Positions 41,266 through 58,997 of a DNA stretch of 64,000 nt are shown here, piece after piece (the stretch's first letter is position 1; each line of letters begins with the position of its first letter). Under the pieces are notes generated by a model. That model made no database searches, was not told where the DNA came from, and saw only the letters and a list, made by a program, of their open reading frames with translations. Position numbers and translations under genes: made by a program. The stretch spans positions 224,001 through 288,000 of the forward strand of contig CBDBKE010000001.1 in assembly GCA_965206645.1 (NCBI GenBank), read 5' to 3'. Source of the DNA: Terriglobia bacterium. GTDB taxonomy: Bacteria; Acidobacteriota; Terriglobia; JAJPHL01; JAPKYU01.

Positions 41266-41523
41266 CCTACCTCCTTTTCACCAGCAGCGCCGGATAGGTC
41301 TCCCCTAACGGGCTAGTGTTTACCTATGTTCCAAGCCTGGAGGGTGAGTGGTGTTCTTTGACTCGCGCCTACCATCGAGAATTTCAGGCCAGCCACTTCG
41401 TGTCAGGCCTGCTTCATATACCGAGCAAGAATCATTTTCCCAACGTAAGGGACTCTCTTGTTGTGGTATACGTTGTCAAGATAGTTATTCTCGCTGGCTC
41501 GCAGGAGAGTCCGGGTAGGGTTC

Positions 41524-41838: not shown

Positions 41839-41874
41839 GAAGGCAAACCGCCGTGGCGATCGCGCTCGCGCACC

Positions 41875-42021
41875 CGAGTCCCGGCCGGCCCCGGCGTCGG
41901 CGCTGGTCGCGTAGCGCACGAGGGACACGCGGTTGACGCCGGGCTGCCGAGCGGCAGTCAGCATGGCAATGACCGGCCCGTAGCCGCACATAGCAAACGA
42001 CGGACACCTGATCAATTCCAC
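41875..42021 (-). pseudogene. AmmeMemoRadiSam protein B (MEMO1) C-terminal fragment
   Basis: MCGYGPVIAMLTAA...LVRYATSAD. Confidence 0.6.
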
Positions 42022-42183
42022 ACATCCCTCAAAGTGTCACTGGCCTGAGGTGCCGTCCCCCACCCGCAAGCCATGCTGAAGGGACGCAGTATAGACGCGG
42101 GGAGGTTTGTTCTCACGGGGACACCTCGGTAGGATAGAATTCCACAGGGGACTGAAGCGGCAACCCCATAAAATCAGGAGCAA

Positions 42184-43128: not shown

Positions 43129-43329
43129 TCTGGCCCGCACCCCTCGCCGACCGGGGCACCTGATCGAACAAGCATGGAGGCGGAAATCGGCCCGTTCCTG
43201 TCGATACGTGCTGGGAGGCTAATATGTTCTTATCTTCCAGCCCGGATCGATGCGCGAGCTGCCGCCCCACGAGCCTGTTCTTCCCATGACGCCAAGCCTC
43301 ATACTTGACCTTCCCGCTCTTTTCCAACA

Positions 43330-43437
43330 AAAGGTATACGCTGGCTGGTAGTGGAACTCCCTGTCGAACTTTCCGCATACACTCGCTGGTAGCCCTCTGC
43401 CAGAAGACCCTTGAGAAGCTTTTAGGCTCCGAGAAGC
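43330..43437 (-). pseudogene. Possible AraC HTH C-terminal fragment cut by IS
   Basis: GFSEPKSFSRVF abuts the IS end. Confidence 0.3.
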
Positions 43438-43504
43438 CGACCTGACCGGCACTTTTTGTACCAAGTGGAAAGAGAGAGAATCCACTTGAGGAGGAAGTGA
43501 GGTC

Positions 43505-43783
43505 ATGCCGACAAGGAGTTACAAGCCGGAGCAGATTGTAGCGGTGCCACGGCAGATAGAAGTGCAGATGGGGAACGGGAAGACTGCGCCCCAAGCCTGC
43601 AAAGAAGCTGGAATCCACACCCAAACCTACTACCGGTGGCGGAAGGAATACGGCGGGCTGAAGGTGGTGCAGGCAAAACGGCTAAAGGAGTTGGAGAAGG
43701 AAAACACGCGGCTGAAGCGGTTGGTAGCGGAGCTTTCTCTGGAGAAGCAGGTACTGCGGGATGTGGCACAGGGAAACTTCTGA
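43505..43783 (+). CDS. IS3 transposase OrfA
   Basis: Nearly identical to 2552-2830. Confidence 0.9.
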   Translation: MPTRSYKPEQIVAVPRQIEVQMGNGKTAPQACKEAGIHTQTYYRWRKEYGGLKVVQAKRLKELEKENTRLKRLVAELSLEKQVLRDVAQGNF

Positions 43784-44637
43784 GCCCTGAGCGGCGGCGT
43801 TGTGCGGTGGAGCGTGCGTGGGAGCAACACGGGTTGTCGGAACGGCATGCCTGCCGGCTGCTGGGGCAATGGCGAGGGACACAACGATACGAGCCGATTC
43901 ATCGGGTGGACGAGGATGCTCTGACCCGAGCGATCATTGCCCTGGGAGCGAAGTACGGGCGATATGGCTACCGGAGGATCACAGCGTTGCTGCGGAGTGC
44001 GGGCTGGGAAGTGGGCAAGGACCGGGTGCAGCGGATTTGGCGGCGGGAAGGGCTGAAAGTGCCGCAAAAACAAAGGCCGCGAGGACGGCTGTGGCTGAAC
44101 GACGGTTCCTGTGTACGACTGAGGCCGGAGCGACCGAACCACGTGTGGAGCTACGACTTCATGAGTGCCAGAACGCACGAGGGGAGAACGCTGCGGCTGC
44201 TGACCTTGCTGGATGAGTACACGCGGGAATGCCTGGCGATCCGGGTGGAGCGGAGGATGGGCAGCCAACAAATCATTGAGGCGTTGTCGGACGTGATGTT
44301 GTGGCGAGGGATACCGGAACAGATTCGATCCGACAATGGTCCCGAGTTCATCGCCAAACAACTGCGCCAGTGGTTGGCAAATCTAGGGACCGGGGCACTG
44401 TACATCGAACCGGGCAGTCCCTGGGAGAACGGGTACTGCGAGAGTTTCAATGGGAAACTGCGGGACGAATGCCTGAATGGAGAGATCTTCTACTCGTTGA
44501 AGGAGGCGCAGGTAGTGATTGAGCAGTGGAGAGTGCAATACAACACGGTGCGGCCGCACTCGGCACTGGGCTACAGGCCCCCGGCGCCGGGGGCCTATAG
44601 AGTCTGTGTGAAAACCGCTCTTGCGAGTCACGTATAA
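43780..44637 (+). CDS. IS3 transposase OrfB, C-terminal tail replaced by IS1182 sequence
   Basis: WSYDF, SDNGPEF and ENGYCESFNG motifs. Confidence 0.88.
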   Translation: MSPERRRCAVERAWEQHGLSERHACRLLGQWRGTQRYEPIHRVDEDALTRAIIALGAKYGRYGYRRITALLRSAGWEVGKDRVQRIWRREGLKVPQKQRPRGRLWLNDGSCVRLRPERPNHVWSYDFMSARTHEGRTLRLLTLLDEYTRECLAIRVERRMGSQQIIEALSDVMLWRGIPEQIRSDNGPEFIAKQLRQWLANLGTGALYIEPGSPWENGYCESFNGKLRDECLNGEIFYSLKEAQVVIEQWRVQYNTVRPHSALGYRPPAPGAYRVCVKTALASHV

Positions 44638-45993
44638 TGCGCCTTAAGGGGGCGCGATGAAATTCTTGACCTACAACCCGGAGCAAGCGTATCTGCTACC
44701 GCCCAGCGTGCGGGAGGTGCTGGGAGAAGATCACATCTGTTTTTTTGTGCACCAAGTCGTGGAGCGGCTGGAACTGAGTGCGTTTGAGCAGGGCTACGTG
44801 GAAGAAGGCCGCCCGGCCTATCATCCGGCGCTGTTGCTGAAGGTGTGGCTGTATGCCTACGCGCTGGGCGTGACCTCGGCCCGCCGTCTGGAACAGCGGG
44901 TGCGGGAGGACCTGGCGTTCCGTTATCTGGCGGCCGGAGCGGGGCCGGACTTTTGGACGCTGAACCAGTTTCGGACGCGGCACGCCCGTGCCCTGAACGA
45001 TCTGTTCACACAGGTGGTGGAGTTGGCGCGGTCGCTGGGGATGGGGCGGCTGGGACACGTGGCCATGGACTCGACGCGGGTGGCGGCCAACGCCTCGCAG
45101 GACCGGGTGGAGACGGTGGCCAAGTTGAGGGCAGAGCGAGCCAAAATTCGGCGGCAGATTCGTCGCTGGCAGAAACAATGTGACACGCAGTCCTGCGAGG
45201 AAGCGGCTGGCCAGCAACTGAGCGGCAAGCAGATGGCAGCGCTGGAGAAGCGGCTGGAAGAAATCCCGCGATGCCTGGAGCGGTTGCGCAAAAGCGGGCT
45301 GAAGCGGCGTTCGGAAACCGATCCCGACAGCCGGTTTTTGCGCGACCGCAAGGGATTCACGCTGGGTTACACGGCGGAGGTGGCGGTCAGCGAAGATCAT
45401 CTGATTGTCGAGCAGCACGTGGGGCAAAACGCCACCGACAACGCGACGCTGGTCCCTCTGGTGGAGGCGGTCGAGCGGCGCTGCCGGGAACGCCCGCAGA
45501 AGGTCAGCGCCGACAGCGGCTTCTTTTGCTTGGAGACCATCGTGGAACTGGCCCAGCGTGGCCTGGACGTCTATGTGCCCGACTCGAACTTGGCGCGGGA
45601 ACTGAACCGAGGCCAACGCGCGCCCGGAGCACCTGCTGTACGGCATCCGGAACATCGGCGAATGCGACGCAAGCTGCGCGACCCGGCCGGCCGGGCGGTT
45701 TATCAGCGGCGCAAGGCGATCGTGGAACCAGTGATCGGGGTTTTGAAAGAACAGCGTGGAATGCGGCAGTTCCGGCGGCGGGGCCTGGAGAAGGTCGCGG
45801 TGGAGTTCGCGCTGGCCGCAACGGCCTTCAACCTCACCCGCCTGTGGCGCAACAAACCGAAGCTAAATCAGGAAGGCTAGTTCAGCAGACTCCCGGACCG
45901 GCGACTCGGCGAAGATCGAAACACCAGAATTCTGGAGCGAATCATGATCCCTTTTGATTTCCAGCCAGCTAAACCGAGTTTCCACACAGGCTC
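44600..45993 (+). mobile_element. IS1182-family element
   Basis: Ends GAGTCTGTGTG and CACACAGGCTC; 4-bp TSD TATA at 44596-44599 and 45994-45997. Confidence 0.92.
44657..45880 (+). CDS. IS1182 transposase
   Basis: GRPAYHP, PDFWTL..FR, DSTRV.ANAS, ADSGF and RK.IVEPVIG motifs. Confidence 0.93.
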   Translation: MKFLTYNPEQAYLLPPSVREVLGEDHICFFVHQVVERLELSAFEQGYVEEGRPAYHPALLLKVWLYAYALGVTSARRLEQRVREDLAFRYLAAGAGPDFWTLNQFRTRHARALNDLFTQVVELARSLGMGRLGHVAMDSTRVAANASQDRVETVAKLRAERAKIRRQIRRWQKQCDTQSCEEAAGQQLSGKQMAALEKRLEEIPRCLERLRKSGLKRRSETDPDSRFLRDRKGFTLGYTAEVAVSEDHLIVEQHVGQNATDNATLVPLVEAVERRCRERPQKVSADSGFFCLETIVELAQRGLDVYVPDSNLARELNRGQRAPGAPAVRHPEHRRMRRKLRDPAGRAVYQRRKAIVEPVIGVLKEQRGMRQFRRRGLEKVAVEFALAATAFNLTRLWRNKPKLNQEG

Positions 45994-46372
45994 TATAGCC
46001 CTTTTCTACTACCAAAACCGGTTTCAAGGCCCCAGGCTATGATGTAGACTCTCACTACTGTTGGTACAAAAACTCGGTCTGGTCAGCACCACGCGTCCGT
46101 TACAGCGCTGCACGAGTCGAAAACCCGGCCTGGCGGTCGAGAGAGCGGGCCGTGGGTTCCGAACCGAAGGGGGGGAACTCTCCAGCGAGGAACACAGCGA
46201 ACTGAACTTGTATCGCCACTGCTCTCGCCGTGTTTTGCTTGGTCCTCTCGACGGACGACGCCTCAGCCTTTTAGGTTTTGTACTGGGTTTGGCTGCCGCA
46301 ACACCGCATGGGGGCAGTTCCCTGCCGACTCAGCGGTCCAATCCACCTAGGAGCTAGAATGGCTCTAGTTCG

Positions 46373-49300
46373 ATGACCACCCACTCAGGCCAGGCCACGG
46401 CGGTCCTCGCCGAAAAGCCCTCCGTTGCACGAGACATTGCCCAAGTCCTGGGCGCCCACCGGCGTGGCGAGGGGTTCCAGCACGGCAACGGATACATCGT
46501 GACGTGGGCCATCGGTCACCTTGTCTCGCTCGCCGAACCCCACGAAATCAATCCTGCCTGGCGTCGTTGGCGGCGGGATCTGCTCCCGCTGTTGCCTCGC
46601 GAGTGGCCCCTGGTCGTCTACGAAGAGACTCGTGATCAGTTCGAGGTCGTCCGAAGAATCCTCCGCAGCAACAAAGTCGCCCGGATCGTGGCGGCGACCG
46701 ATGCAGGACGGGAGGGCGAGCTGATCTTCCGCTACATCTACAAGTTGGTCGGATGCACGAAACCGGTGGAGCGCCTCTGGATTTCCTCGCTGACATCCGA
46801 GGCAATTCGGCAAGGCTTCCGCACGCTGAAGCCTGCCCGAGCATACGACTGTCTCGCCGATGCGGCCCGAGCGCGCAGCCGGGCCGACTGGCTCGTCGGC
46901 ATGAACCTCTCCCGCCTCTACAGTCTGGACTGCCAGCAACAGCTGTCAGTCGGACGGGTACAGACACCGACCCTGGCCATGGTGGTCGAGCGGGAGTTGG
47001 CGATTCGCTCGTTCGTGCCCGAGGACTATCTGCAGGTCGTCGCGACCTTCCAACCCTTGGAGGGTGCCGGCGACGAGCCAGGAGAGCAATCGGATGGCTC
47101 CGCGCAAAAGCTGTCTTTCAAGGGAACATACTTCCGGCCGGCTGAGAACCCAGCGTCGGTCGGCAAAGCTGAGCTTCTCGACAAGGGCCCATCCCAGCGT
47201 GGCACGCGGCTGCCGGCCGACGGTGAGGAAGCCCGCCAGATCGTCGAGCGGGCCCAAACGGGAGAGGCTCACATCGCGTCCATCGAATGCGAGACGAAGC
47301 GGCTGGCGCCTCCCTTGCTCTATGACCTGACGGAGCTGCAGCGCCACGCCAATCGACTCTACGGCTTCAGCGCGAAGCGGACCTTGGATCTCGCGCAGAA
47401 CCTCTACGAGAAGCACAAGCTCCTCACGTACCCTCGCACCAACAGTCGTCATCTCTCCCAGGACGTGGCAGCAACACTGGACAAAGTCGTACGGGCGATC
47501 GCCGGGCCCTATCAAGCGTCACTTGCTCCGGGAACCGGCAGGCGCCCCCTGGGTCGGCGGTTCGTCGATGACGCCAAGGTCACCGACCACCACGCGATCA
47601 TCCCCACCGGCGTTGCGGGATCACCGCCGCGCGGCGATGAAGCCAAGATCTATGACCTGGTGTGCCGTCGTCTGCTCGGTGCTTGGCACCAGGACCACGT
47701 CTGGGCTGTCACCACCATCATCACCACCGTCACTTCGCCTGCCGAGCCAGAGCAATCGGACCGCGTGGTCGACCGCTACTGCAGCCCGGGCATGTCGGTC
47801 GAACAAGAAGGCTGGAAAGTGCTGGACCTGGCGCCCCCAAGTAAAGCCGCCAAACGAAAACCGACAGCGGAAGAGATCCGAGACGACTCCTCGTCAAAGA
47901 ACTCCCCCTCCGACGGAGAAGGCGCACAGAGAATCCCACCGGGACTGGCACAGGGCCAGCCACAACGAGTCTCCCACGTCGAAGCGCTTTCCAAGAAGAC
48001 ACGGCCGCCGAAGCGATTCACCGAGGCCACGCTGCTGACGGCGATGGAGTCTGCCGGGAAGACGCTCGAAGAAAAAGAGCTTTCCGACGCCATGAAAGAC
48101 CGCGGGTTGGGCACGGCGGCGACCCGCGCGACGATCATCGAGACAGTGTTGCGAAGGGAATACCTGCGGCGTAAGGGCAACTCCCTCGAGGCGACCGAGA
48201 AAGGGATTCACTTGATTGACGTCGTGCACGCTGCGGTCAAGAGTCCGGCCATGACCGGCGAGTGGGAAGCGCAACTGCGCGAGATCGAACGCGGCCAGGG
48301 CCAATTCCAGAAGTTCATGCAGGGGATCGAGGAGTACCTTCGCCACGTTGTCGGCAAGAAGCCGGTGCAAGGACAGCCCGAGCCCTACGCGGAGCATCAG
48401 TCATCCCTTCGGCCGACGGCGGAGTCGCTCGGATCTCGGCCGACCCGTTCCCTTGAGCAAACAGAACGGCGCTCTCTGGCTGCGAGTGCGGGGGCTGGCC
48501 CACAAGGGGCGCTCTCTCACGCCCCGGCAGAGGTGGATCGCGGTCCGCCCACAGCTCGTGTGTCTACGGGCACGGACGGTGCGGAACAGGGTGGGTCCGG
48601 GCTCGGCGAGCTGCTGCGGTCCGGCTTCGGCTTCGAGTCATTCCGTCCCTATCAGGAGGAGGTCTGCGAGGCAGCCGCCGCCGGGCGTGACGTGCTACTG
48701 GTGATGCCCACCGGCGCCGGCAAATCGCTCTGCTACCAACTCCCTGGCCTGGCGCGCGGGGGCGTGACGCTGGTCATCAGCCCCCTGATCGCGCTCATGG
48801 AAGATCAGGTTGCCAAGCTCCAACAAACGGGCCTTCGTGCGGAGCGGATCCACTCTGGGCGCGACCGGGGGCTCAGCCGCGAGGTCTGTTTCCGTTACCT
48901 CGAGGGGAAACTCGATTTTCTCTTCATCGCCCCGGAACGGTTGAATGTGACAGGCTTCCCGGAGATGCTCGCCAAGCGGACTCCCACGCTCATCGCGATC
49001 GACGAGGCACACTGTATCTCACACTGGGGTCACGATTTCCGTCCCGAGTATCGCATGTTGGGACAGCGGCTCGCCCCGCTGCGTCCCGCTCCCGTCATCG
49101 CACTGACCGCGACCGCGACCCCGCTGGTGCAAGACGACATCATCGAACAGCTCGGGCTCAACAACCCGTTATGCGGGATCCACGGATTCCGGCGCGACAA
49201 CATCGCCATCGAGGTCATCGAGAGGACGCCGAGTCAACGCCCTCCAGCAGTCAAGGAGCTGCTCGCGGAGCCAGTGCAGCGCCCCGCCATCATCTATGCG

Positions 49301-50644
49301 CCCACGCGCAAGTCCGCCGAAGAGCTCGCGCTGGAGTTAGCACCACAGTTCTCGACAGCGGCCTACCACGCGGGAATGATGCCGGAGACCCGCGACAAGG
49401 TCCAAACAGCGTTTCTGTCGGGCACACACGAAGTCATCGTCGCCACGATCGCCTTCGGGATGGGGATCGACAAGCCCAACATCCGCACGGTCGTGCATAC
49501 CGGCCTACCGGGCAGCGTGGAAGCCTACTATCAGGAAATCGGCCGGGCCGGACGCGACGGCAAGCCGTCCCGGGCGGTGCTGATGTATTCCTGGGCCGAC
49601 CGCAAGACGCACGAGTTCTTCCAAGGGCGCGACTATCCCGCTGTGGAAGAACTGGAGCGGATCTTCGAGAAACTGTCCAACGAACCCGAGGCCCGCCAGA
49701 AACTCAAGCAGCAGGTTCGAATGGACATGATCGTCTTCGAGAAAGCGCTCGAAAAACTCTGGATTCACGAGGGAGCGCTGATCGATCCCGAAGAAAACGT
49801 GCGGCGCGGTCATGACCGCTGGAGGGCACCCTATATCGCGCAACGCGAGTACAAGCTCAAGCAGCTTGACCGCATCGTCCGCTTTGCCTCCTCACATGAG
49901 TGTCGCATGCGCGACCTCGTCCGACACTTCGGCGACCAAGCGGACTCGCAACAGCCGTGCGGCACCTGTGACATTTGCGCTCCGGATTCTTGTGTCGTGC
50001 AGCGGTACCGGCAGCCCAGCGAAGAAGAAAACGTCAGTCTCGATCAGATCGTTGAAGCCGTCAAGGCGCAAGAGGGGCTGGCCCTCGGCCGGTTGCACGA
50101 ACAAGTCGCCAAAGCGACCCCGCTGGAACGAAAGACTTTCGAGAAGCTGCTGGGTGGGTTGGCCCGGGCAGGGCTCGTCAAGACAATCGCTGCTGCCTTC
50201 GATAAGAACGGGCGGAGGATCGAATATCGCCGCGTTTTTCTTACCCAGGAGGGCCGGCAGCTCACTGGCTCGGCCGCACCCCTCGTCTCGTTGCCGGTCG
50301 AGGCTCCCCCTGCCCCCAAGAAGAAAAAGAAGAAACGCACGGCGAAGCCCGGAAAGAAAGAGCCACGACCGGAGAAGCACAGGCCCACTGTTCAGCCCAT
50401 CGAAGCCGACGACGGACTCCCGGATCCACAACTGGTCGAGCAGCTGCGAGCCTGGCGTCTTGAGAAAGCCCGTGCGCAGCGCATCCCAGCTTTCCGCGTC
50501 TTCCCGGACCGAACCTTAAACTCCATCGCGCAATTGCGCCCCACCAACCAGGAAGAGCTCTTACAAGTGCCAGGCATCGGGCCCCGTCTCGCTCGTAAAT
50601 ACGGTCGGAAGATTCTCTCGCTCGTAGCCGGAAACGACAAGTGA
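46373..50644 (+). CDS. DNA topoisomerase III - RecQ helicase - HRDC fusion
   Basis: Type IA motifs AEKPSVA, ATDAGREGE, GRVQTPTL and TYPRT. RecQ motifs PTGAGKS, DEAH, WGHDFRP, QEIGRAGRDG and CGTCDIC. C-terminal HRDC domain. Confidence 0.93.
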   Translation: MTTHSGQATAVLAEKPSVARDIAQVLGAHRRGEGFQHGNGYIVTWAIGHLVSLAEPHEINPAWRRWRRDLLPLLPREWPLVVYEETRDQFEVVRRILRSNKVARIVAATDAGREGELIFRYIYKLVGCTKPVERLWISSLTSEAIRQGFRTLKPARAYDCLADAARARSRADWLVGMNLSRLYSLDCQQQLSVGRVQTPTLAMVVERELAIRSFVPEDYLQVVATFQPLEGAGDEPGEQSDGSAQKLSFKGTYFRPAENPASVGKAELLDKGPSQRGTRLPADGEEARQIVERAQTGEAHIASIECETKRLAPPLLYDLTELQRHANRLYGFSAKRTLDLAQNLYEKHKLLTYPRTNSRHLSQDVAATLDKVVRAIAGPYQASLAPGTGRRPLGRRFVDDAKVTDHHAIIPTGVAGSPPRGDEAKIYDLVCRRLLGAWHQDHVWAVTTIITTVTSPAEPEQSDRVVDRYCSPGMSVEQEGWKVLDLAPPSKAAKRKPTAEEIRDDSSSKNSPSDGEGAQRIPPGLAQGQPQRVSHVEALSKKTRPPKRFTEATLLTAMESAGKTLEEKELSDAMKDRGLGTAATRATIIETVLRREYLRRKGNSLEATEKGIHLIDVVHAAVKSPAMTGEWEAQLREIERGQGQFQKFMQGIEEYLRHVVGKKPVQGQPEPYAEHQSSLRPTAESLGSRPTRSLEQTERRSLAASAGAGPQGALSHAPAEVDRGPPTARVSTGTDGAEQGGSGLGELLRSGFGFESFRPYQEEVCEAAAAGRDVLLVMPTGAGKSLCYQLPGLARGGVTLVISPLIALMEDQVAKLQQTGLRAERIHSGRDRGLSREVCFRYLEGKLDFLFIAPERLNVTGFPEMLAKRTPTLIAIDEAHCISHWGHDFRPEYRMLGQRLAPLRPAPVIALTATATPLVQDDIIEQLGLNNPLCGIHGFRRDNIAIEVIERTPSQRPPAVKELLAEPVQRPAIIYAPTRKSAEELALELAPQFSTAAYHAGMMPETRDKVQTAFLSGTHEVIVATIAFGMGIDKPNIRTVVHTGLPGSVEAYYQEIGRAGRDGKPSRAVLMYSWADRKTHEFFQGRDYPAVEELERIFEKLSNEPEARQKLKQQVRMDMIVFEKALEKLWIHEGALIDPEENVRRGHDRWRAPYIAQREYKLKQLDRIVRFASSHECRMRDLVRHFGDQADSQQPCGTCDICAPDSCVVQRYRQPSEEENVSLDQIVEAVKAQEGLALGRLHEQVAKATPLERKTFEKLLGGLARAGLVKTIAAAFDKNGRRIEYRRVFLTQEGRQLTGSAAPLVSLPVEAPPAPKKKKKKRTAKPGKKEPRPEKHRPTVQPIEADDGLPDPQLVEQLRAWRLEKARAQRIPAFRVFPDRTLNSIAQLRPTNQEELLQVPGIGPRLARKYGRKILSLVAGNDK

Positions 50645-50678
50645 CCTTGGGCAGAACGCGTGCTGCCGGGGGGCGTTA

Positions 50679-51267
50679 GAGTCTGTGTGGAAACTCGGTT
50701 TAGCTGGCTGGAAATCAAAAGAGATCATGATCCGCTCCAGAATTCTGGTGTTTCGATCTTCGCCGAGTCGCCGGTCCGGGAGTCTGCCGAACTAGCCTTC
50801 CTGATCTAGCTTCGGTTTGTTGCGCCACAGGCGGGTGAGGTTGAAGGCCGTTGCGGCCAGCGCGAACTCCACCGCGACCTTCCCCAGGCCCCGCCGCCGG
50901 AACTGCCGCATTCCACGCTGTTCTTTCAAAACCCCGATCACTGGTTCCACGATCGCCTTGCGCCGCTGATAAACCGCCCGCCCGGCCGGGTCGCGCAGCT
51001 TGCGTCGCATTCGCCGGTGTTCCGGATGCCGTACAGCAGGTGCTCCGGGCGCGCGTTGGCCTCGGTTCAGTTCCCGCGCCAAGTTCGAGTCGGGCACATA
51101 GACGTCCAGGCCACGCTGGGCCAGTTCCACGATGGTCTCCAAGCAAAAGAAGCCGCTGTCGGCGCTGACCTTCTGCGGGCGTTCCCGGCAGCGTCGCTCG
51201 ACCGCCTCCACCAGAGGGACCAGCGTCGCGTTGTCGGTGGCGTTTTGCCCCACGCGCTGCTCGACAA
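50679..51267 (-). mobile_element. 3' part of a second IS1182 copy, truncated at an att junction
   Basis: Near-identical reverse complement of about 45405-45993. Confidence 0.9.
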
Positions 51268-51305
51268 GCAGGAGGTCGGAGGTTCGAGCCCTCCACCGCT
51301 CACCA
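51264..51305 (+). other. att site: 3' half of a tRNA-Val(TAC)-like gene
   Basis: ACAA GCAGG AGGTC GGAGG-TTCGAGC-CCTCC ACCGCTC ACCA, next to the integrase 3' end. Arm-like repeats AACTGT(A/C)AA at 51361-51380. Confidence 0.85.
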
Positions 51306-51390
51306 TTTAACTTACTTGTTTTCATCACCCGTCTGCCTTGCCTCTCGTTGCCGAAGACGGAACTGTAAAGAAACTGTCAAAAAACTGGCT

Positions 51391-52563
51391 CTAGATGGCC
51401 AGCGCTGTAAAGGAACTCGCGCCGTGCTCGTTCGCCTGTCGGTCGAGCTTGGACAGCGCTTCCCGCATCATGTTGAGCTTCGCGTGGCTGTAGCGCTTGA
51501 ACACCTGCGAATCGCCTTGTCGGAGCATCTGCGTCACGAAATGATCCGCCACGCCCCCGGCGCTGAGCCGGGTCGCAAACGTGTGGCGCAGCTCGTATAG
51601 CGAAAAATGCGGCAGCCCGGCGCGCTGGAGCGTCCGGTTCCACAGCTTTTGCACCGTCGTGATGTGCGGCTTGCTCAAGTCCATCCGCGAGCTCGGGAAC
51701 AGGTAGTCGGAATCGCCGCTCTGCTTCATCTGTGAGGCGAACGCTTGACGGGCTCTGTCGGTCATCGGCATGTCCGCGATACCATTCACCGTCTTGGAAT
51801 CCGGCAGATGCACGATCCCGTTCTCCAGATCGACCTGTCCCTTTCGCATCGGGATCAACTCCCGATAGGGCCGCAGCCCCATCTCCACCATGATCGCGAT
51901 GATGTTGCGCAGGTACAGGGGCGCGCAGGCTTCCAGCCAGGCCTGCTTCGAGGCGGTCAGATAGTGCGGCTTGCGCGTCGTGCCCGCCAACGCCACCGGA
52001 AACTCCACCCCATTACAGGGATTGACCGCCAGCCGCCGCTTCTTCACCGCCACGTTCAGGATACGTCTCAGGACGCGAAACTCCTGATGCACGGTGGCAG
52101 GTTTGAGCCTGCCGCGAAGTTGCAGCCCCAACTTGGTATGCACCCGCTTGCCTGTATTCAATCTGGTCATCAGGTACGATTCGATATCTTCCGGTGTGAT
52201 GTCCGATAGTCTGTTCTTGCCGAACCGGGGCCTCAGGAACTTCAACGCGCCGAGGTTCTGCACGTGAGTCTTCTCGCTCCGGAAGGGTGGTTTGGATCGG
52301 TTCTCAAGGAACCAGTCCGCCCACTCGTTGAACCTGATCTCCCCGCCCGGCGCGGCGCTCGGCAGCAACCCCTCGTCGCGAGCCACCAACCGTTTGCGCA
52401 TCACCTTCTCGGCTTCCCCTTTTTCTCTCTGCCCTGTCGAGGTCTGTCTCCACCTCCCGTTCTGCTCTCGATAGCTCATCCACCAGACGCGTGAATTGCA
52501 CCGCAGGTACAGGCTACCAGCGGTATTTCTGGGTCTACCTGTCTTGTTCATCGATTCCTCCAT
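51391..52563 (-). CDS. Tyrosine integrase
   Basis: MGLRP, DSKT, YELRHTFATR and KRYS motifs; N-terminal arm-binding-like domain. Confidence 0.93.
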   Translation of the reverse strand: MEESMNKTGRPRNTAGSLYLRCNSRVWWMSYREQNGRWRQTSTGQREKGEAEKVMRKRLVARDEGLLPSAAPGGEIRFNEWADWFLENRSKPPFRSEKTHVQNLGALKFLRPRFGKNRLSDITPEDIESYLMTRLNTGKRVHTKLGLQLRGRLKPATVHQEFRVLRRILNVAVKKRRLAVNPCNGVEFPVALAGTTRKPHYLTASKQAWLEACAPLYLRNIIAIMVEMGLRPYRELIPMRKGQVDLENGIVHLPDSKTVNGIADMPMTDRARQAFASQMKQSGDSDYLFPSSRMDLSKPHITTVQKLWNRTLQRAGLPHFSLYELRHTFATRLSAGGVADHFVTQMLRQGDSQVFKRYSHAKLNMMREALSKLDRQANEHGASSFTALAI

Positions 52564-52753
52564 TCACATGAAATTGCTGGCGCCACTCGGCTAGCTCCGA
52601 CAATCGGAAGCGGATCGAGCGGCCCATCATGCGGTAATGGGGAATCTGCTTTCGCTCGACGTAAGCATACACCAGCGAGGGGCTGACGCCCAGGAAGCGG
52701 GCGGCGGCCTTCACCGTGATCGGGGCTTCCCTCGCTTCTGTGTCCAGGCTCAT
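52535..52753 (-). CDS. Excisionase-like HTH_17 protein
   Basis: TVKAAARFLGVSPSLVY...IP..R.GRSIRF. Confidence 0.88.
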   Translation of the reverse strand: MSLDTEAREAPITVKAAARFLGVSPSLVYAYVERKQIPHYRMMGRSIRFRLSELAEWRQQFHVNGGIDEQDR

Positions 52754-52968
52754 CCTTCCTCCTCTACTCTCCACGCCGGACCGAGCGCTCCGTCAGATCC
52801 ACCTTCCGCCCCGGATCGGCGAGTCCGGCGGCTTGCGTCTTCGGGAAAGACGCCGTACTCCTGGGCGATCCAGGCCGGGACTTCCAGCGTCTCGTCACCG
52901 TCCCGGCCGAGCTCCAGGGCGAAGTCCCTGATGGTATTCACCCGTATGATTTTTTCTTCATCCCTCAT
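52750..52968 (-). CDS. Small hypothetical protein
   Basis: Overlaps both neighbours in the operon. Confidence 0.55.
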   Translation of the reverse strand: MRDEEKIIRVNTIRDFALELGRDGDETLEVPAWIAQEYGVFPEDASRRTRRSGAEGGSDGALGPAWRVEEEG

Positions 52969-53923
52969 TGTGTTCCCTCCAGATCGGCTTGATGATCCAG
53001 TGGTTCTGTGGCGCGTCGTAGCCCTGGACGAGCAGCGCTTCCTCCACGAAGCGGCGTCCCTCTCGCCGTGTCATGTGAATCACCATGGCGATGCCGTCCA
53101 CCACGCCCCGGCAGGTCACCTCCCAGGGAAGCTCACCGCCGCCCTGCATGGCGCAACTGGCGATGCGCGACAAGGCCGACTCGGCGTTGTTGGCGTGTAC
53201 GGTGGTGAGGGAGCCGCCGTGTCCGGTGTTGAGGGCTTGCAATAGATCAGCGGCCTCGCCGCCCCGGACCTCGCCCACCACGATGTGATCCGGGCGGTGA
53301 CGCAAGGCGTGGCGGACTAAATCACGGATCGTCACCGCTCCGGTTGCCAGTCCGCGAGCCTCGAAGCGGACGCAATTAGAGCGCTCAATGCGAAGCTCAA
53401 GGGTGTCCTCGATGGCGACGATGCGCTCGTCGTTGGGAAGCAATTCAATAAGTGCGTTAAGCAGGGTGGTCTTGCCCGATCCAGTGCCGCCTGAAACCAG
53501 GATGTTTCGCCGGGAGCGCAACACCCGCTCGGCTTCCGCTCGCACGTCTTCGGGGAGTGCGCCTTGCTTCACGAGATCATCCGCCGAGAACGCCCGCTTG
53601 CCAAAGCGCCGCATGGTGATCGCCACTTGAGGACTCGCGGGCGGAACACAGATGGCAACCCGCGAGCCGTCGTCCAGGCGCGCATCGACAATCGGCGAGC
53701 TCGCCGGATCCAAGCCCAAAGGACGGGCAATGTGGATGGCCGCCCGCAATAGGGCCGATTCGTCCAGGTCCGGCGCGTCATGTGCCGTCAACCGCCCGGC
53801 CCGCTCGACCCAGACATTGCCGGGGCCGTTAATCATGATCTCGCTGACTTCGGAATCTTCCAGGGCGCTTTCCAATCCCGGTAGAAATGGTTTCAGGTGT
53901 TCCAGTCCACTCGCGGTGCTCAT
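52958..53923 (-). CDS. CpaF/VirB11-family secretion ATPase
   Basis: SEIMING, GGTGSGKTT, IEDTLEL, LRHRPD.IVVGEVRG and NTGH..TTVH motifs. Confidence 0.93.
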   Translation of the reverse strand: MSTASGLEHLKPFLPGLESALEDSEVSEIMINGPGNVWVERAGRLTAHDAPDLDESALLRAAIHIARPLGLDPASSPIVDARLDDGSRVAICVPPASPQVAITMRRFGKRAFSADDLVKQGALPEDVRAEAERVLRSRRNILVSGGTGSGKTTLLNALIELLPNDERIVAIEDTLELRIERSNCVRFEARGLATGAVTIRDLVRHALRHRPDHIVVGEVRGGEAADLLQALNTGHGGSLTTVHANNAESALSRIASCAMQGGGELPWEVTCRGVVDGIAMVIHMTRREGRRFVEEALLVQGYDAPQNHWIIKPIWREHNEG

Positions 53924-56049
53924 AATTGACCCGCCGCTTTCGCTCTCCAATACGAATGTGCGAGGGGCAGATAGTGAGGCTTGAGGTAGACCCGGCGCGG
54001 TTCAATCGACTGCGACCCGTCATAGGGCAGACAGATCGCTTGACAGTTCGAGAGCAGCGTGAAGTCTCGCGGGTGAAACACGGCCTCGCGTTGCTCCCGG
54101 AAAGACTTGGTCGCGCCGATGCTGCCCCCGCCTCCACCGGCGCGGCCCGACAGCGGGGAGACTTCCGCCCGCTTGGAGGTCTCGCTGATGGTGTAGGATC
54201 CCTTGATCTTCGCCACCTGCCCGCACATTTCGCTTGCAATCTTGGCGCTGGCGTCGTCGCTGAGAGACAGGAAAATCCGTGTGCGGAGCGTCTGCAACAG
54301 CGACCGCCATGCTTCCGAGCTTCCCAACACGGAGCGGAGCGAGGAAATGGATTGCGTGGCGACAATCGGGATGCAGCGGCATTGCCGGGTCAGCGCAAAG
54401 GATTTCTCATCGCCCGATGGATCGTCCTCACCCACCGAAGCGAAGGCTTGATATTCGTCACAGATAAAGACGGCAGGCCGGAAATAGACCCCCGGCGACT
54501 CCTTCATCTTGGTCGGGCGCATGAGAAGCGCCTGTAGCCAGGCGTTCTTGAGCATCACGCCCACGGCGCGGGCCAGCGCCGGGTTCGATCCGGCGGGCAT
54601 GTTCAAGGCCAGCACCTTGCCCCTTTCGATCAATTCATAGAGCGGGGGCAGGTGTCGCGGCCCGGCGATTCGTTCCTCTTCGACCGGCGGGATCGACGTG
54701 GGCGCGGGTTTGTCTCCTTCCCCGCCGTCCGGCTTCTTGTTCAGTTCCTGGGCTTCTTCCCCGGCCCGCTTCGCGGCCCTGGCCTGAACTGCAATGGCTT
54801 GCGGATCGTCGGGGACTTCCGGCGGCCCCGGACAAAACACCTTTGCCACATCCGGCATATCGAACATGGCAAGGAACACCGAAACCCCCTCCACAATCGA
54901 GGACTTCACTTTGTTGTCCAGCGTTTGCCAGTCGTTGACAAACCAGCGCTTCACCGCCTCCACTCGTTCTCTCACTTCGTCGCCGGGTCCGGGGTCCCAA
55001 ACCACCCGGTAGGTCAGCTTGAGCTCGTCCAGTTTGTTGAGCATGGGACGGGAGTAGGCGGCCCGCACTTCTTCCGTTCCCGGTATGTCTTTCCATAGCC
55101 ATTCAGCCAAGGTCATGATGTGGGCTTGGTATACGACCTCTGGAATGAAAACCGTGCCTCTGTTCAACTCGTCGCTCCACGCTTCGGCTTGCTCGATCTT
55201 GGCAGCGAAAAGGTCCGGGTCGATGGCGCAGCGGTAGACCTGCTGCAACGTCACCCACCGTTCCGGGAAGATTCGGTGAAGCTCAATGATCCAGCGGACC
55301 AGATTGGTATAGGCTTGCTGCCAGAACGGTTCCTTGCCCTTGCCGAATAGCTGGTTGAGAAGGCTCGAAACGGTGTAGGCCAGCGAGTAGGAATCGAGCC
55401 ACCAGGCCGAGAGCGGGTTCCATTGCCAGCGGTCCTTCATGCCAAGCTCGATGTAGTCTTTTCCCCGGCCTGCCTCGGTCAGGATTTGGCGGATGTCGTG
55501 ACAGAAATCTCCCTTGACTTCGAGCATGAGCGCTGCCGCCCGCATCTGTGGATTCGCCGCTTGCCAGCCGAGAAGTTGCTTAGCGAAGGGGTGCATACAA
55601 GCCGAGGTCTTGCCGGACCCGACGGCCCCGAAGATCGCCACGCCGGTATACAGCCCGCGCTCCGGGATGGTGAGCCAGGAGGGATTGAAAATCTCCCGCG
55701 CCTCGACCGGATGATGGACCTCCCCGATGACGATGGCCGGGGCCGTTTGCCGGGGTGAAAGCGGCCAGGTCGGGAGCGCCCCAAAGGGCGCAAAATCCCG
55801 CCGCCGCGATTCCAGCCAGACCTTCCAGACGGACAAGAGAACGAGGCCCGCGAGCATGACGGCGAAGAAAGGCGAAGCGTAGTACCAGAGCATCACCCAG
55901 CCGTAGAAGTTCGGGGTGTGGTAGTCCATCAGATCGAGCAAGGGACTATCCCCAAGCATGGGGAAGGGACGGTGGACAAAGCTCCACAGGGCGTACCCCA
56001 GCGCGCCGAAAAACAGAAGGATGTGAGGAATGAAGCGCCTCCATTTCAT
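53920..56049 (-). CDS. Type IV coupling protein (TraD/VirD4-like)
   Basis: Two N-terminal TM helices; GAVGSGKT, FICDEYQ and VATQSISSL motifs. Confidence 0.88.
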   Translation of the reverse strand: MKWRRFIPHILLFFGALGYALWSFVHRPFPMLGDSPLLDLMDYHTPNFYGWVMLWYYASPFFAVMLAGLVLLSVWKVWLESRRRDFAPFGALPTWPLSPRQTAPAIVIGEVHHPVEAREIFNPSWLTIPERGLYTGVAIFGAVGSGKTSACMHPFAKQLLGWQAANPQMRAAALMLEVKGDFCHDIRQILTEAGRGKDYIELGMKDRWQWNPLSAWWLDSYSLAYTVSSLLNQLFGKGKEPFWQQAYTNLVRWIIELHRIFPERWVTLQQVYRCAIDPDLFAAKIEQAEAWSDELNRGTVFIPEVVYQAHIMTLAEWLWKDIPGTEEVRAAYSRPMLNKLDELKLTYRVVWDPGPGDEVRERVEAVKRWFVNDWQTLDNKVKSSIVEGVSVFLAMFDMPDVAKVFCPGPPEVPDDPQAIAVQARAAKRAGEEAQELNKKPDGGEGDKPAPTSIPPVEEERIAGPRHLPPLYELIERGKVLALNMPAGSNPALARAVGVMLKNAWLQALLMRPTKMKESPGVYFRPAVFICDEYQAFASVGEDDPSGDEKSFALTRQCRCIPIVATQSISSLRSVLGSSEAWRSLLQTLRTRIFLSLSDDASAKIASEMCGQVAKIKGSYTISETSKRAEVSPLSGRAGGGGGSIGATKSFREQREAVFHPRDFTLLSNCQAICLPYDGSQSIEPRRVYLKPHYLPLAHSYWRAKAAGQL

Positions 56050-56115
56050 GGGTCCGTCTGCCTTCCGTCAGCGCCCCCGCTGGGGGCTGCTCCGAGCCTT
56101 CCCGCAGGGATCAAT

Positions 56116-56219
56116 GAGGACGATAGCGACCCCATGGGGCAGCGATAGGGGCATGTGACACAGTGCCTCTATCGGGGCCACATGACCCCCCGGTTTTCGG
56201 GGGGGTCGCTATCGTCCTC
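56116..56219. repeat. 18-bp perfect inverted repeat enclosing nested hairpins
   Basis: GAGGACGATAGCGACCCC (56116-56133) and GGGGTCGCTATCGTCCTC (56202-56219). Confidence 0.85.
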
Positions 56220-56387
56220 CCCGATTCTGCTCCTTCGGCGCAGCGGAGGCCGAGTGACAAGGGAGAGCCACAGAAGAATGAGAGAGATACGGAAATATGG
56301 AGTTGGGACACCCTTTGTCGAAATCGTGTGACATCCCCCCCTCTGTGACTGTCACATTTAACACGCGGCCCCCAGTCACACGAAAAA

Positions 56388-57505
56388 GGGCGTTGGTGCA
56401 TGAATCGTCCTCGGCTCCCCCGCTAGCATTGGCTCGGTGTTCCGATCCATCATGGAGATCAAGGGGGGCAACGTCATGGCCGCAGGGAAGTCGAGCCGAG
56501 TCAACCGCAAGTACAAGACGAAATGCAGAATCTGGAACTGGAGGGAGTACGAGCGGGGCCTCAGGAGCCGCGGCGACGTCACGATCTGGCTGAGCGAGGA
56601 GGCGATCGCCGCGTGGACACCGGCGAAGAACGGTCTCCGCGGAGGCCAGCGGCGGTACTCGAACCTCGCGATCTTGACCGCGTTGACGCTGCGGGTCGTC
56701 TTCCACCTGCCGCTTCGCCAGACCGAGGGTTTCCTAGACTCGCTGCTCAGCTTGATGGGCCTCGACCTCAAGGCCCCGGACCACACCACACTCTCGCGCC
56801 GGAACCAAATCGTTGAGGTGCCGCCTCTAACCCGAGCCCACGACGGCCCGATCCACTTGATCGTCGATTCCACGGGGCTCAAGATCCTGGGTTGCGGCGA
56901 ATGGAATTCGCACAAGTACAAGGCATCCAAGAAACGCCGGGACTGGCGAAAGCTGCACATCGGAGTGGATGACGAGGGGTTCATTGTGGCGGCCGAACTC
57001 ACGACGAGCAGCGGGGACGACGCCTCCGCCCTGCCGGATCTGCTCGACCAGATCGAGGCTCCCATCCGGCGTTTCACGGCGGACGGGGCCTACGACAACA
57101 GGGCGATCTACGATCGGGTCGGCGCGGCCGGTACAGAGGACGTCGTGATCGTGATCCCCCCTCGTCGCTGTGCGGTGTCCGCGGGGCCCACGGACGGCCC
57201 GTGGGCGCAACGAGAAGCGGCTCTTCAGAGAGTTCGTAAGATCGGACGACGAGAGTGGCAGAAGGAGTTGGGCTACCGACAGCAGGCGCGCGTTGAGAAC
57301 TGGTTCTTCCGATACAAGTCAGTGCTCGGAGGAAGCCTGAAGGCGAGGAACAGCAACGCGCAAAGGAAAGAGACCACGATCGGGTGTCACATCCTCAACC
57401 GGATGGCCGAGCTCGGCAGGCCGAAGTCCTACGCCGTGGTGTCATGAACGAGGGGTTGGGAAAACGGCCTGACTCGCGCCAAGGTTGAATCGTGCAACAG
57501 CGCCC
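56388..57505 (+). mobile_element. IS5-family (IS903-like) element
   Basis: IRs GGGCGTTGGTGCATGAATC and GAATCGTGCAACAGCGCCC; no TSD. Confidence 0.9.
56476..57447 (+). CDS. IS5-family transposase
   Basis: NWREYE.GL..RG, PDHTTLSRR, DSTGLK, WRKLH and ADGAYD motifs. Confidence 0.92.
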   Translation: MAAGKSSRVNRKYKTKCRIWNWREYERGLRSRGDVTIWLSEEAIAAWTPAKNGLRGGQRRYSNLAILTALTLRVVFHLPLRQTEGFLDSLLSLMGLDLKAPDHTTLSRRNQIVEVPPLTRAHDGPIHLIVDSTGLKILGCGEWNSHKYKASKKRRDWRKLHIGVDDEGFIVAAELTTSSGDDASALPDLLDQIEAPIRRFTADGAYDNRAIYDRVGAAGTEDVVIVIPPRRCAVSAGPTDGPWAQREAALQRVRKIGRREWQKELGYRQQARVENWFFRYKSVLGGSLKARNSNAQRKETTIGCHILNRMAELGRPKSYAVVS

Positions 57506-57791
57506 CGAGGCGGCGCTAAAAACTTGGAGCAGCCGGGCGGGTGAGCAGAGCAGTCAACGGGAATATGGACCGAGCCGAAACGACCCGGAAGTGCAGGAGG
57601 AAATCAAGTACATCGAGACCGCGCTTAACAATGCGGACACAAGGATCATAGCGAAGTACGGAGGGGTCGAGGAAATCTCGGACAGGCTGATGGAACTGAA
57701 AGACCTTCCCAAGTCGAGCGGCCCCGGAGCCACCATCGACGACTACGAGACGTGGGTTTCTGACCGCTTGAGGGCGGAGGAAACAGTCTAG
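57506..57791 (+). pseudogene. C-terminal fragment of an unknown gene cut by IS5
   Basis: Protein-like frame from the IS end to TAG 57791. Confidence 0.4.
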
Positions 57792-58005
57792 TGAACCGTA
57801 CTGATAGAACCTCAGATTTCAGGCGTTCCGGAGTCAAGGCCGGGGTCCAGGCCTTGCCGGACCATCGTGCCACAAATATAAGGGGGGGTATGGGGCATAA
57901 ATCGGCTGGGTGGTGTTCCACCGCCATTTTCCTTACTTTGTTGTACCACAGTAGCTTAGACGCTACTACCAAGCCAGACCGTGCCGATACAGAGGAAAAG
58001 GGAAA

Positions 58006-58124
58006 GACGGAAGCGACCCCCCCCTTTTTGCCGCTCTAGCGGCAAACATGGCGGGGGTTTGGGGCAGGGTTTGTTACAGGGTTTGGGGCATACCCTGCCC
58101 CCCCTTATGGGGGTCGCTTCCGTC
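58006..58124. repeat. 16-bp perfect inverted repeat enclosing 12-bp iteron-like repeats
   Basis: GACGGAAGCGACCCCC and GGGGGTCGCTTCCGTC flank GGGGGTTTGGGG CAGGGTTTGTTA CAGGGTTTGGGG. Confidence 0.85.
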
Positions 58125-58225
58125 CAAATTGTCCCTGCGGGAAGGCTCGGATAAAGGCCCATGCGCAGCAACGGATACGCGCCGGAGAGAGGCCGGATGA
58201 AATGGTGTCATCCGGTTGGTTCTGG

Positions 58226-58265
58226 TTGCTTTTCCAAGGAAGTTAGACTAGTTTTATGTCTAGTC
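58226..58265 (+). promoter_or_regulatory. Putative vapBC promoter/operator
   Basis: TTGCTT-17-TAGTTT overlapped by the palindrome GACTAG-N8-CTAGTC. Confidence 0.45.
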
Positions 58266-58290
58266 ATTCTTTTGGCGGAGGTAACGCTGC

Positions 58291-58551
58291 ATGAGCAAGA
58301 CATGGCAGGTGCAAGATGCCAAGGCGCGTTTCAGCGAGTTGCTTGAGACGAGTTTGGCCGAAGGCCCCCAGATCGTGACCAAACGGGGCGTGGAGACGGC
58401 CGTGCTGTTACCCATCGACGAGTGGCGACGATTGGAGAAGCGGGCTAGGCCGGATCTCAAGCAACTACTGCTCGCTCCAGAGGCTCGCACGGATGCGCTG
58501 ACGCCGCCACGGCCGCAGCATCGCCACCGCGTGTCTCCGAGCTTCGATTAA
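58291..58551 (+). CDS. Phd/YefM family antitoxin
   Basis: WQVQDAKARFSEL...GPQIVTKRG. Confidence 0.92.
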   Translation: MSKTWQVQDAKARFSELLETSLAEGPQIVTKRGVETAVLLPIDEWRRLEKRARPDLKQLLLAPEARTDALTPPRPQHRHRVSPSFD

Positions 58552-58555
58552 ATCC

Positions 58556-58978
58556 GTGTACCTGCTCGACACCAATGTCGTATCGGAACTGCGCCGTCCT
58601 CATCCGCATCCAACCGTCGTCCGGTGGATTGAAGAAGTGGCCGCCGATGAACTGTTCCTGTCCGCGGTGACGGTCGGGGAGATCCAAGCAGGCATCGAAC
58701 TCACCCGCGAGCAGGATGTCGCCAAGGCGGAGGAACTGGAAACATGGCTCAGCGCGGTGCTGGCCTCCTATAACGTCCTCCCCATGAACGCAACCACATT
58801 CCGGGAATGGGCGAGGCTCAAGCATCGCCGTTCAGACACTCTGCTGGAGGACGCCATGATCGCCGCGACGGCCGTGGTGCATCGGCTGACGATCGTGACC
58901 CGGAACGTGCGCGATTTTGACCAGCTCGGGGTAGATCTCCTGAATCCATTCGAACACGAATCCGACGTGCGGCGGTAA
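58556..58978 (+). CDS. vapC: VapC PIN-domain toxin
   Basis: [18 protein letters not shown] and VTRNVRDF motifs. Confidence 0.93.
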
Positions 58979-58997
58979 GCTGGAGGAATCACAACCT

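Follow-up and report, generated by a model that had tools for sequence, protein, structure and literature searches.

The question raised by this locus is how the 3' half of a tRNA gene with an integrase gene beside it came to be joined to the inside of an insertion sequence (IS). The DNA analysed (the window, a stretch of 64,000 nucleotides) corresponds to C1:224001-288000 of a Terriglobia genome of four contigs (G000), and coordinates without a contig name refer to the window. Within this stretch, an IS1182-family copy breaks off inside its transposase gene and continues as the 3' half of tRNA-Val(TAC), next to the gene of a tyrosine integrase. The arrangement is best explained by an integrative conjugative element of a tRNA-using type from Acidobacteriota, which would have inserted in this IS1182 copy by site-specific recombination; we assign this explanation a probability of about 85%. 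The kind of event is known, namely the integration of a tyrosine-integrase element at a secondary site, and what is new is the multicopy IS as the target, the recurrence at this target and a family-wide rule of seven nucleotides at the point of exchange.

The left junction lies completely within the window. Compared to an intact IS1182 copy (44597-45999, plus strand, 1403 bp), the inverted partial copy at about 50674-51267 (minus strand) showed an identity of 98% over 601 nt. It comprises the 3' part of the IS (positions ~805-1403; in the genome search with the IS, positions 805-1399 at C1:275271-274677, minus strand) and represents the host-side left arm of the attachment site attL. The identity runs until ...GCTGCTCGACAA, after which TCAGATG follows in the intact copy only, while the partial copy runs from the break at 51267 into a 38-nt tRNA 3' half ending in CCA (51268-51305, plus strand). 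Since CAG comes next in both partners, the switch point can only be placed within 51267-51271. The tRNA half extends from the 3' strand of the anticodon stem, GCAGG, to CCA and is identical to positions 40-77 of the host tRNA-Val(TAC) except for one T/C difference in the acceptor stem; an alignment over 42 nt, corresponding to tRNA positions 36-77, gave 97.6%. In attL, this half is the core of the arm contributed by the element. Directly before it lies the left copy of an 11-bp direct repeat (CTGCTCGACAA; 51257-51267, plus strand), which comprises a stem-like CTGC and TCGACAA as a 7-nt spacer. From the end of the tRNA half to the stop codon of the integrase gene there are 85 nt (51306-51390, plus strand), and this conserved element-side arm is common to sibling elements adjoining intact genes for tRNA-Val(TAC), tRNA-Ala(GGC) and tRNA-Pro(GGG), with DNA identities of 93-97% over the first 400 nt past the tRNA end. 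No tRNA was called by ARAGORN at the left junction, which agrees with the presence of a half only. For the 18-nt and 32-nt junction probes 0 matches were expected (100 shuffles), which excludes chance.

All parts named in the preliminary description of this DNA, that is, the IS1182 match up to the break and thereafter a tRNA 3' half beside an integrase, were therefore found at the place given for them. The same description had pointed to an anticodon-like stem-loop at the junction. Its sequence is as described, but the rebuilding of the stem is trivial, because the 3' side is supplied by the element, and the likeness of the IS site to the 17-bp tRNA core is modest, with 11 of the 17 positions matching and six mismatches.

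A reciprocal junction had been predicted beyond the 64 kb, where the missing 5' part of the IS on the minus strand would mark the other attachment site. This part was found 36 kb downstream: IS positions 2-819 lie at G000:C1:312061-311244, outside the window and in the same minus orientation. The far junction reads ...GTGGAAGACGCCAGC CTGCTCGACAA TCAGATGATCTTCG..., and CTGCTCGACAA is thus present at both junctions, its right copy being located at G000:C1:311244-311254 (corresponding to 87244-87254 in window coordinates, outside the window). Together, the two parts make up one IS that is interrupted within transposase codons 250-253, and according to the table of single-nucleotide polymorphisms both halves belong to one older (~98%) IS subfamily. 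To the left of the far junction, the IS 5' part is directly abutted by a conserved right arm of the element, ending in ...GTGGAAGACGCC(A/T)GCCTGC (also written ...GAAAACCGTGGAAGACGCC(A/T)GCCTGC), which is 331 bp long at C1 and of which 15 are present in the genome. The element interval is C1:275268-311243, about 36 kb, with 51268-64000 (plus strand) as its part in the window and the remainder continuing to G000:C1:311243. The outer flanks comprise the gene of a TopoIII-RecQ fusion on the left and those of LemA and an M48 peptidase on the right. With the 11 of 17 matches and the 11-bp repeat, the target resembles the core and both of its halves flank the element, as is characteristic of a secondary site. 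The window element is the only one in G000 for which both junctions are intact.

The far end is not an intact tRNA-Val gene and the IS remainder is present, so that neither of these two outcomes, which had been named as contrary to an integration, was observed. A deletion between a tRNA and the IS as the origin of the left junction is ruled out by the other IS half, and an insertion of the IS into a tRNA gene is ruled out because the IS is the interrupted partner. In a very repeat-rich genome such as this one, and with no junction-spanning independent reads found in four public runs, a chimeric join in the assembly or an illegitimate deletion that fused the IS to a tRNA-linked island has to be considered. 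Either would leave unaccounted for the reciprocal junction 36 kb away, with its other IS half, proper element end and 11-bp repeat, and in addition the separately assembled genome of a second species of the genus (G003) shares the left junction, with an identity of 98.2% over 2.1 kb and a different outer flank, and contains two right junctions. We regard such an artefact or deletion as extremely improbable.

The primary site of the element can be deduced from its siblings. The likeness to a typical tRNA-Val(TAC), on which the preliminary description had relied, is borne out by the host gene, since the sole tRNA-Val(TAC) of the genome (C4:2048746-2048822) has exactly the anticodon arm CCTGC-CTTACAA-GCAGG. 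The sibling located at this gene shares with the window element 97% of the DNA over the first 400 nt and 94% over 2.7 kb, and its integrase is 97% identical to that in the window. A direct repeat of tRNA positions 33-77 was determined for the sibling at tRNA-Pro(GGG), 36.8 kb from the tRNA. As this repeat starts at tRNA position 33, the crossover has to be placed at the 5' edge of the anticodon loop, which supports the crossover in the anticodon loop proposed earlier. Islands that are centred on the anticodon comprise a tRNA 3' part beside the integrase, which the window element has, and a regenerated target tRNA gene with the displaced fragment far away, which it lacks, as IS DNA lies on its left and an IS half on its right. 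The tRNA-Pro sibling shows both the regenerated tRNA and the displaced fragment. The tRNA-Val sibling lies beside an intact, regenerated gene, and no displaced 3' fragment of tRNA-Val was found in the genome.

Concerning the tRNA-Val gene itself, six extra copies of its 5' half (positions 1-40 or 1-42) were observed in G000 (C4:1073427, C4:1974988, C3:689641, C3:881069, C3:8573 and C3:425847). The real gene (G000:C4:2048746-2050066, L004:8746-10066) has the sibling element downstream and, directly upstream, a second, paralogous integrase with 49% identity, and it thus appears that both neighbours contributed element-borne halves to the working tRNA-Val. Islands with a 5' tRNA fragment are a known minority in the Islander collection, with 159 versus 3760 according to part of the report (PMC4383910).

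Based on these junctions, the following course of events would be expected. The family module encodes the tyrosine integrase, VirB11, a coupling protein and type IV secretion genes, and the attP of the circular form would consist of the right arm, CCTGC, a 7-nt overlap, GCAGG and the tRNA half, with the crossover at the 7-nt anticodon loop. The usual target of this copy is CCTGC-CTTACAA-GCAGG in tRNA-Val(TAC). In the present case attP would have paired with the pseudo-attB gCTGC-TCGACAA-TCAGa in the IS1182 transposase gene, presumably with the integrase as the catalyst and the 7-nt spacer as the overlap, and the strands would have been exchanged on either side of the seven nucleotides. What is left is an attL of IS 3' part, spacer, element-borne tRNA half and integrase, together with an attR 36 kb away that consists of the right arm ending in CCTGC, the same spacer and the IS 5' part. 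The IS copy is inactivated and no tRNA is rebuilt. The sequences themselves show the two junctions and IS halves, the primary site, the repeated use of this IS position and the architecture common to the family. With one spacer common to attL and attR and an intact open reading frame of the integrase, precise excision, which could restore the IS exactly, is conceivable. Self-transfer should no longer be possible because the secretion genes have been lost.

An IS is present in many copies, and the question arises whether the same position was used more than once. The intact copy belongs to the IS1182 family with 321.3 bits against NCBIfam NF033551 (cut-off 270), and its transposase (44657-45880, plus strand, 407 aa) also matches DUF772, DDE_Tnp_1_6 and DDE_Tnp_1 in Pfam. 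There are 15 full-length or near-full-length copies in the genome with identities of 98-100%, and the matching ends AGAGTCTGTGTG...CACACAGGCTCT represent the terminal inverted repeats of a discrete multicopy element. The empty target CTGC-TCGACAA-TCAG is found in the intact copy on the minus strand at ~45401-45415. A second right junction was detected in G000 at C3:149087, where the same arm is followed by CTGATCGACAA, a one-base variant (CTGA), and then by IS positions 819 down to 38. The IS part at C3 differs from that at C1 at 8 of 819 sites, with unrelated copies of the subfamily differing at 7-9 sites, and the element DNA resembles that at C1 only over the last 331 bp, whereas deeper in it matches the right end at C4:2063296-2061876. 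Because of both differences, the C3 junction is, judged by its sequence, a separate insertion by a different element variant and not a copy of the C1 junction. Among 41 genomes (G000 and 40 relatives) the right-junction pattern was found in two, G000 and G003. The proposal that a multicopy IS served as a secondary attB is thus backed by recurrence: by C3:149087, by the one left and two right junctions in G003, and by the use of a site in IS3 orfA in three genomes, which is described below.

A scan of metagenomes with the 22-nt left junction gave five matches, four of which are coincidental and lie inside coding sequence. The fifth, on the metagenome contig L123, was not used as support, since its left flank contains no IS-like open reading frame; the 12 nt GCTGCTCGACAA recur there, with a tRNA-Val-like 3' half of another sequence next to them (T arm ACTGG...CCAGT), and the contig may represent another lineage that shares the spacer. 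In one contig of run X15 with a loose end at window position 51272, ...CTCGACAA is followed by GCAGG and 13 letters that match the right arm in reverse complement. An insertion in the opposite orientation at the same IS site in another organism would agree with this sequence, which is known from a single contig and too short to count.

The arrangement in the window is not restricted to this genome. Relatives of the integrase with identities of 46-97% were found only in Acidobacteriota assemblies. Hand counts of the loci with the conserved arm amounted to ~38, of which ~13 adjoin an intact tRNA (Val, Arg, Pro or Lys isoacceptors) and in ~25 the integrase has beside it no more than a tRNA 3' half, which continues into non-tRNA DNA as in the window. 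The 4.04-Mb Terriglobia chromosome G031 contains ~25 integrase relatives and 34 right-arm matches, for which 29 junctions were read. With a fixed register, 14 of the 21 left junctions in G031 have a right junction with an identical 7-mer; with the tRNA half allowed to comprise 36-39 nt, the number of paired left junctions is 19, compared to 0.04 expected by chance over 609 comparisons, and no partner was present for L021 and L055 among the 29 junctions read. Fifteen of these 19 pairs are separated by 10-63 kb and oriented as expected, and the other four are inverted and span more than 1 Mb. The pair L027/L096 splits an IS3 orfA between ...LVAELSLE and EKQVLQEVAEGNF with the following stop, and the same orfA site is occupied by right ends in G000 and, in a third genome, by a left end. 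Further targets are sibling integrase genes, in both orientations. In G000, an uninterrupted target is known for seven distinct right-end junctions (10 right ends), and at all seven the switch to the target is consistent with a position directly after the (C)CTGC-type end of the arm. For the orphan right ends that lie at IS3 or integrase-gene sites in G000, no left partners were found.

In general, right ends exceed left ends, with 15 versus 5 in G000 and 34 versus ~21 in G031. Many right ends are orphans, and several lie within the integrase or VirB11 gene of a sibling. Rearrangement in these genomes apparently stems to a large extent from the elements. One lineage showed a degenerate half that is no longer tRNA-like (GCAGGCGACCGGGAGGGTRGAAACGG...CCA; G000:C4:1109995, L025, L027, L040 and L050). 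It occurs with the spacer TGGAGAA in L025, L027 and L050 and with other spacers in L040 (a variant of the half) and at C4:1109995; the sites are IS3 orfA for L025 and L027 and lie elsewhere for L050, L040 and C4:1109995. Such a half would fit a decay that sets in once the rebuilding of a tRNA is not needed anymore.

In the genome, 1,363 sites match the tRNA core better than the IS site does, and 7,767 match it as well or better. Mimicry alone can therefore not explain the choice of the IS. The 11-bp CTGCTCGACAA occurs 35 times in the genome; 16 of these lie in IS copies, 2 belong to the junctions and 17 are located at other places. The spacers pose a further problem. For the conjugative element ICEBs1, part of the report (PMC3715440) states that unlike overlaps leave unlike spacers at attL and attR. 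Since an exchange between unlike overlaps predicts unlike ends, the identical spacers at the two C1 junctions are at odds with the simple model. Moreover, every spacer pair seen in the family is identical, and one subtype of the tRNA half (GCAGTAGGCCGCCGG...) is combined with at least five different spacers. We favour the explanation that each lineage changed its target a single time and thereafter spread to identical sites, because it requires no new chemistry. By analogy with the saf mutants of phage lambda, an attP that once carried TCGACAA would then match all IS copies. The IS would be favoured as a supplier of many identical and harmless copies, and an insertion inside mobile DNA would probably cost the host nothing, which could explain the many targets in IS and siblings.

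The same integration could also have followed an unusual chemistry, in which any 7-nt spacer between short GC...GC flanks is accepted and the spacer of the target appears at both ends, in effect as a 7-bp target duplication, by directed heteroduplex repair or gap filling. This would account for TCGACAA at both C1 junctions, for the GCAGTAGGCCGCCGG... subtype with its at least five spacers and for the weakly conserved flanks of the targets (roughly (T)GC-N7-GC). It would equally agree with the identical spacers in 19 of 21 G031 pairs, no unlike pair having been seen, and with the target's spacer at 7/7 distinct right-end junctions with known target (10 right ends), although a spread from cell to cell to the same site would also yield identical spacers. 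We know of no tyrosine recombinase that gives the target's spacer on both sides regardless. Some spacers recur with particular subtypes of the tRNA half, as would be expected for an element-borne overlap; examples are TGGAGAA, found with the degenerate half, TGCGYAA, CGCCCAA, and TTGGCTA, which occurs at two unrelated targets. For heterobivalent integrases, identity of the overlaps is mandatory while their composition is free, as stated in part of a preprint (bioRxiv 10.1101/2023.11.06.565760) which lists the lambda saf work (Weisberg et al. 1983) as its reference 66, and this need for identity also speaks against a duplication-like process. Altogether, we consider such a chemistry unlikely, and re-targeting followed by spread remains the favoured explanation of the spacers.

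Several observations weigh against an insertion of one element by site-specific recombination. The junction rests on one assembly and the like junction in G003. Neither a circle junction nor a restored IS was present in the contigs of four public read runs, and none of the contigs listed for these runs bridges 51267/51268, the best run holding 0.65 of the sampled words. The contigs of the public runs are short and stop at repeat borders; they run on into the intact IS or, in one run, into a real tRNA-Val. The ends of the split IS showed no clean match as target duplications and are ambiguous in this respect. As described above, the IS site is a poor mimic, and both C1 junctions carry TCGACAA and not the tRNA loop CTTACAA. 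The recurrence may partly reflect shared ancestry, with one attL and two attR in each of G000 and G003. With its siblings, the window element shares only the first module of 5.1 kb and the last 331 bp, so the 36 kb do not form a coherent element. The interior otherwise consists of IS copies and of segments duplicated elsewhere on the contig and has undergone rebuilding, and an origin of the two ends from different copies is conceivable in principle.

The mosaic interior also leads to the alternative that no fresh integration took place, and that the ends never belonged to one insertion but result from a rearrangement (inversion or translocation), integrase-mediated or homologous, between resident copies of the element and of the IS, or were inherited from an ancestor and reshuffled. 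A genome packed with IS copies and element fragments, with 15 right and 5 left ends, would provide the material for this, and distant pairs do exist, as four of the 19 G031 pairs are inverted over distances of more than 1 Mb and the like junctions in G003 lie 1.4-2.7 Mb apart. The two IS halves in C1, however, are exactly complementary, lie in the same orientation on the same contig and have the correct element end at each of them. In addition, an element must in any case have integrated at this IS position at least once, so that a rearrangement would alter the dating of the event and not its nature. A rearrangement without integration is therefore regarded as quite improbable, and an integration into the IS1182 copy remains the preferred explanation.

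The gene content of the element is in line with a conjugative origin. The integrase (51391-52563, minus strand, 390 aa) is apparently intact and matched PF00589 with an E of 3e-19. Its alignment to the XerA chain 5hxy_A spans the catalytic region with GLR, LRHTFAT and the tyrosine of RYSH, and with PF00589 and the Arg, His-x-x-Arg and Tyr motifs it is a member of the tyrosine recombinase family. The catalytic columns are kept among six family members, with the exception of a paralogue with Ser for His. The integrase gene is followed by the conjugation module, which comprises a VirB11/TrbB-like secretion ATPase (52958-53950, minus strand; PF00437, with TIGR02788 and TIGR02782 below their cut-offs) and a VirD4/TraG-like coupling protein (53920-56049, minus strand), shortened at its 5' end to 709 aa compared to 825 aa in a sibling. 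The homology to siblings ends at element coordinate 5121, and the conserved module is ended by the IS of an IS5-like transposase gene (56437-57447, plus strand), past which the type IV secretion genes of the sibling are missing. The cargo at 58556-62652 (plus strand) consists of a PIN toxin, HsdM of a type I restriction-modification system, a HigB-like toxin and HsdS.

The tRNA-Pro sibling carries VirB2, VirB3, a VirB4-like ATPase, VirB8, VirB9/CagX, VirB10/TrbI, VirB11, the coupling protein of 825 aa and ArdC. Compared to this full mating-pair formation set with coupling protein, only VirB11 and the shortened coupling protein are left in the window copy. No relaxase family was matched by Pfam in the window copy or in the tRNA-Pro sibling, several open reading frames being without a match. 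Based on the full type IV secretion set of the sibling, the family is therefore predicted to consist of conjugative elements with an anticodon-centred attP, and the copy in the window is evidently decayed, its full-length integrase notwithstanding.

Further observations concern the surroundings of the IS1182 copies. Eleven of the 15 full copies directly adjoin, on one side or the other, the palindrome GGCCCCCGGCGCCGGGGGCC located where an IS3-family element ends (for example at 44575-44600), and a variant of GGCCCCCGGCGCCGGGGGCC was observed on one flank of the split copy. This suggests that the target preference of IS1182 is directed by hairpins. The gene of the TopoIII-RecQ fusion (46373-50644, 1423 aa) lies between two inverted IS1182 copies. 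The segment around it (46002-50670, C1:270085-274676) is duplicated with 99.85% at C4:1123470-1128061. The fusion gene is absent from the three genomes of the same genus, while some more distant relatives contain a like fusion. An empty ancestral site was sought in the relatives and none could be shown, since the left flank is lacking there and is duplicated in G000. In addition, an 8-kb segment (38000-46085) is duplicated at 99.5% in G000:C4:1317-9400. It holds tRNA-Gly(GCC), tRNA-Cys(GCA), an IS3-family copy and the intact IS1182, which is nested in the end of the latter.

A more far-reaching interpretation is that the 7-nt crossover of this lineage is effectively re-writable, either because the spacer of a mismatched site is adopted or because that of the target is copied every time. 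The elements would then quit the tRNA genes and settle in DNA that is both repeated and harmless, namely IS1182, IS3 orfA and sibling integrase genes, with dozens of them per genome and a useless tRNA half that decays, as in the lineage that targets IS3. We put this forward tentatively, at somewhat less than an even chance. If true, it would describe a natural path from a site-specific island to a transposon-like element, and insertion sequences would act as landing pads that spread. Irrespective of this, integrases that target tRNA genes are usually taken as strictly site-specific and their secondary sites as rare dead ends. The findings presented here cut against this view, as the secondary site is a multicopy IS that was used repeatedly and could be restored exactly upon excision. 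Programs that search for islands by matching a displaced fragment to the intact tRNA gene it came from will probably overlook such elements or put them in the wrong place. Moreover, nested mobile elements can seed large rearrangements, and the family offers natural data on the change of integrase targets. In the literature searched, supplements aside, no description of an IS as the attB of a tRNA-targeting element was found.

A comparison with known systems helps to define what is shared and what differs. Weisberg et al. (1983) reportedly observed for the saf mutants of lambda that the overlap sequence is free, provided that the partners agree, and a passage via a secondary site is said to rewrite the overlap and to shift the site preference. 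Such a rewriting of the overlap is the model proposed here for the spacer adapted to the IS. In contrast to one phage in the laboratory, it would represent a natural and repeated route to new targets, including repeated DNA. Conjugative transposons of the Tn916/CTnDOT type are similar in being conjugative, in using tyrosine recombinases and in having many insertion sites per genome. Their enzymes tolerate unlike coupling sequences and leave different ends, and the elements contain no tRNA half, whereas here a tRNA half is carried and the end spacers are identical in every pair seen.

An anticodon-loop class of tRNA-gene islands was reportedly recognised by Williams in 2002. According to part of the Islander report (PMC4383910), the integrase of such islands is located by the tRNA 3' end, the element carries the 3' part of the tRNA, the anticodon loop forms the centre of the crossover and the far end is marked by a displaced fragment. 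The siblings at tRNA-Pro and tRNA-Val agree with this, the displaced fragment having been found for the one at tRNA-Pro. In contrast, the target of the window copy is not a tRNA, its tRNA half is without a partner and no tRNA is regenerated. An Islander-type search, as set out in the same part of the report, links each displaced fragment to the intact tRNA gene that it belongs to, whereas here the intact tRNA-Val is located on another contig.

For ICEBs1 of Bacillus subtilis (Menard and Grossman 2013), part of the report (PMC3715440) gives as attB a 17-bp stretch of a tRNA gene in which inverted repeats of 5 bp enclose a crossover spacer of 7 bp, a layout that agrees with the exchange proposed here, and secondary sites with 2-12 mismatches. 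Both systems are thus conjugative elements with a tyrosine integrase, a primary site in a tRNA gene and look-alike secondary sites, and the six mismatches of the IS site lie within the range of ICEBs1. According to the same part, however, the secondary sites of ICEBs1 were obtained in the laboratory after deletion of the primary site and lie in single-copy genes, and unlike spacers are said to give unlike attL and attR. Here, the target lies inside a multicopy IS, its use is natural and repeated and the spacers at both ends are alike, and the behaviour is a family-wide trait with up to 34 right ends per genome, reached on a 4-Mb chromosome.

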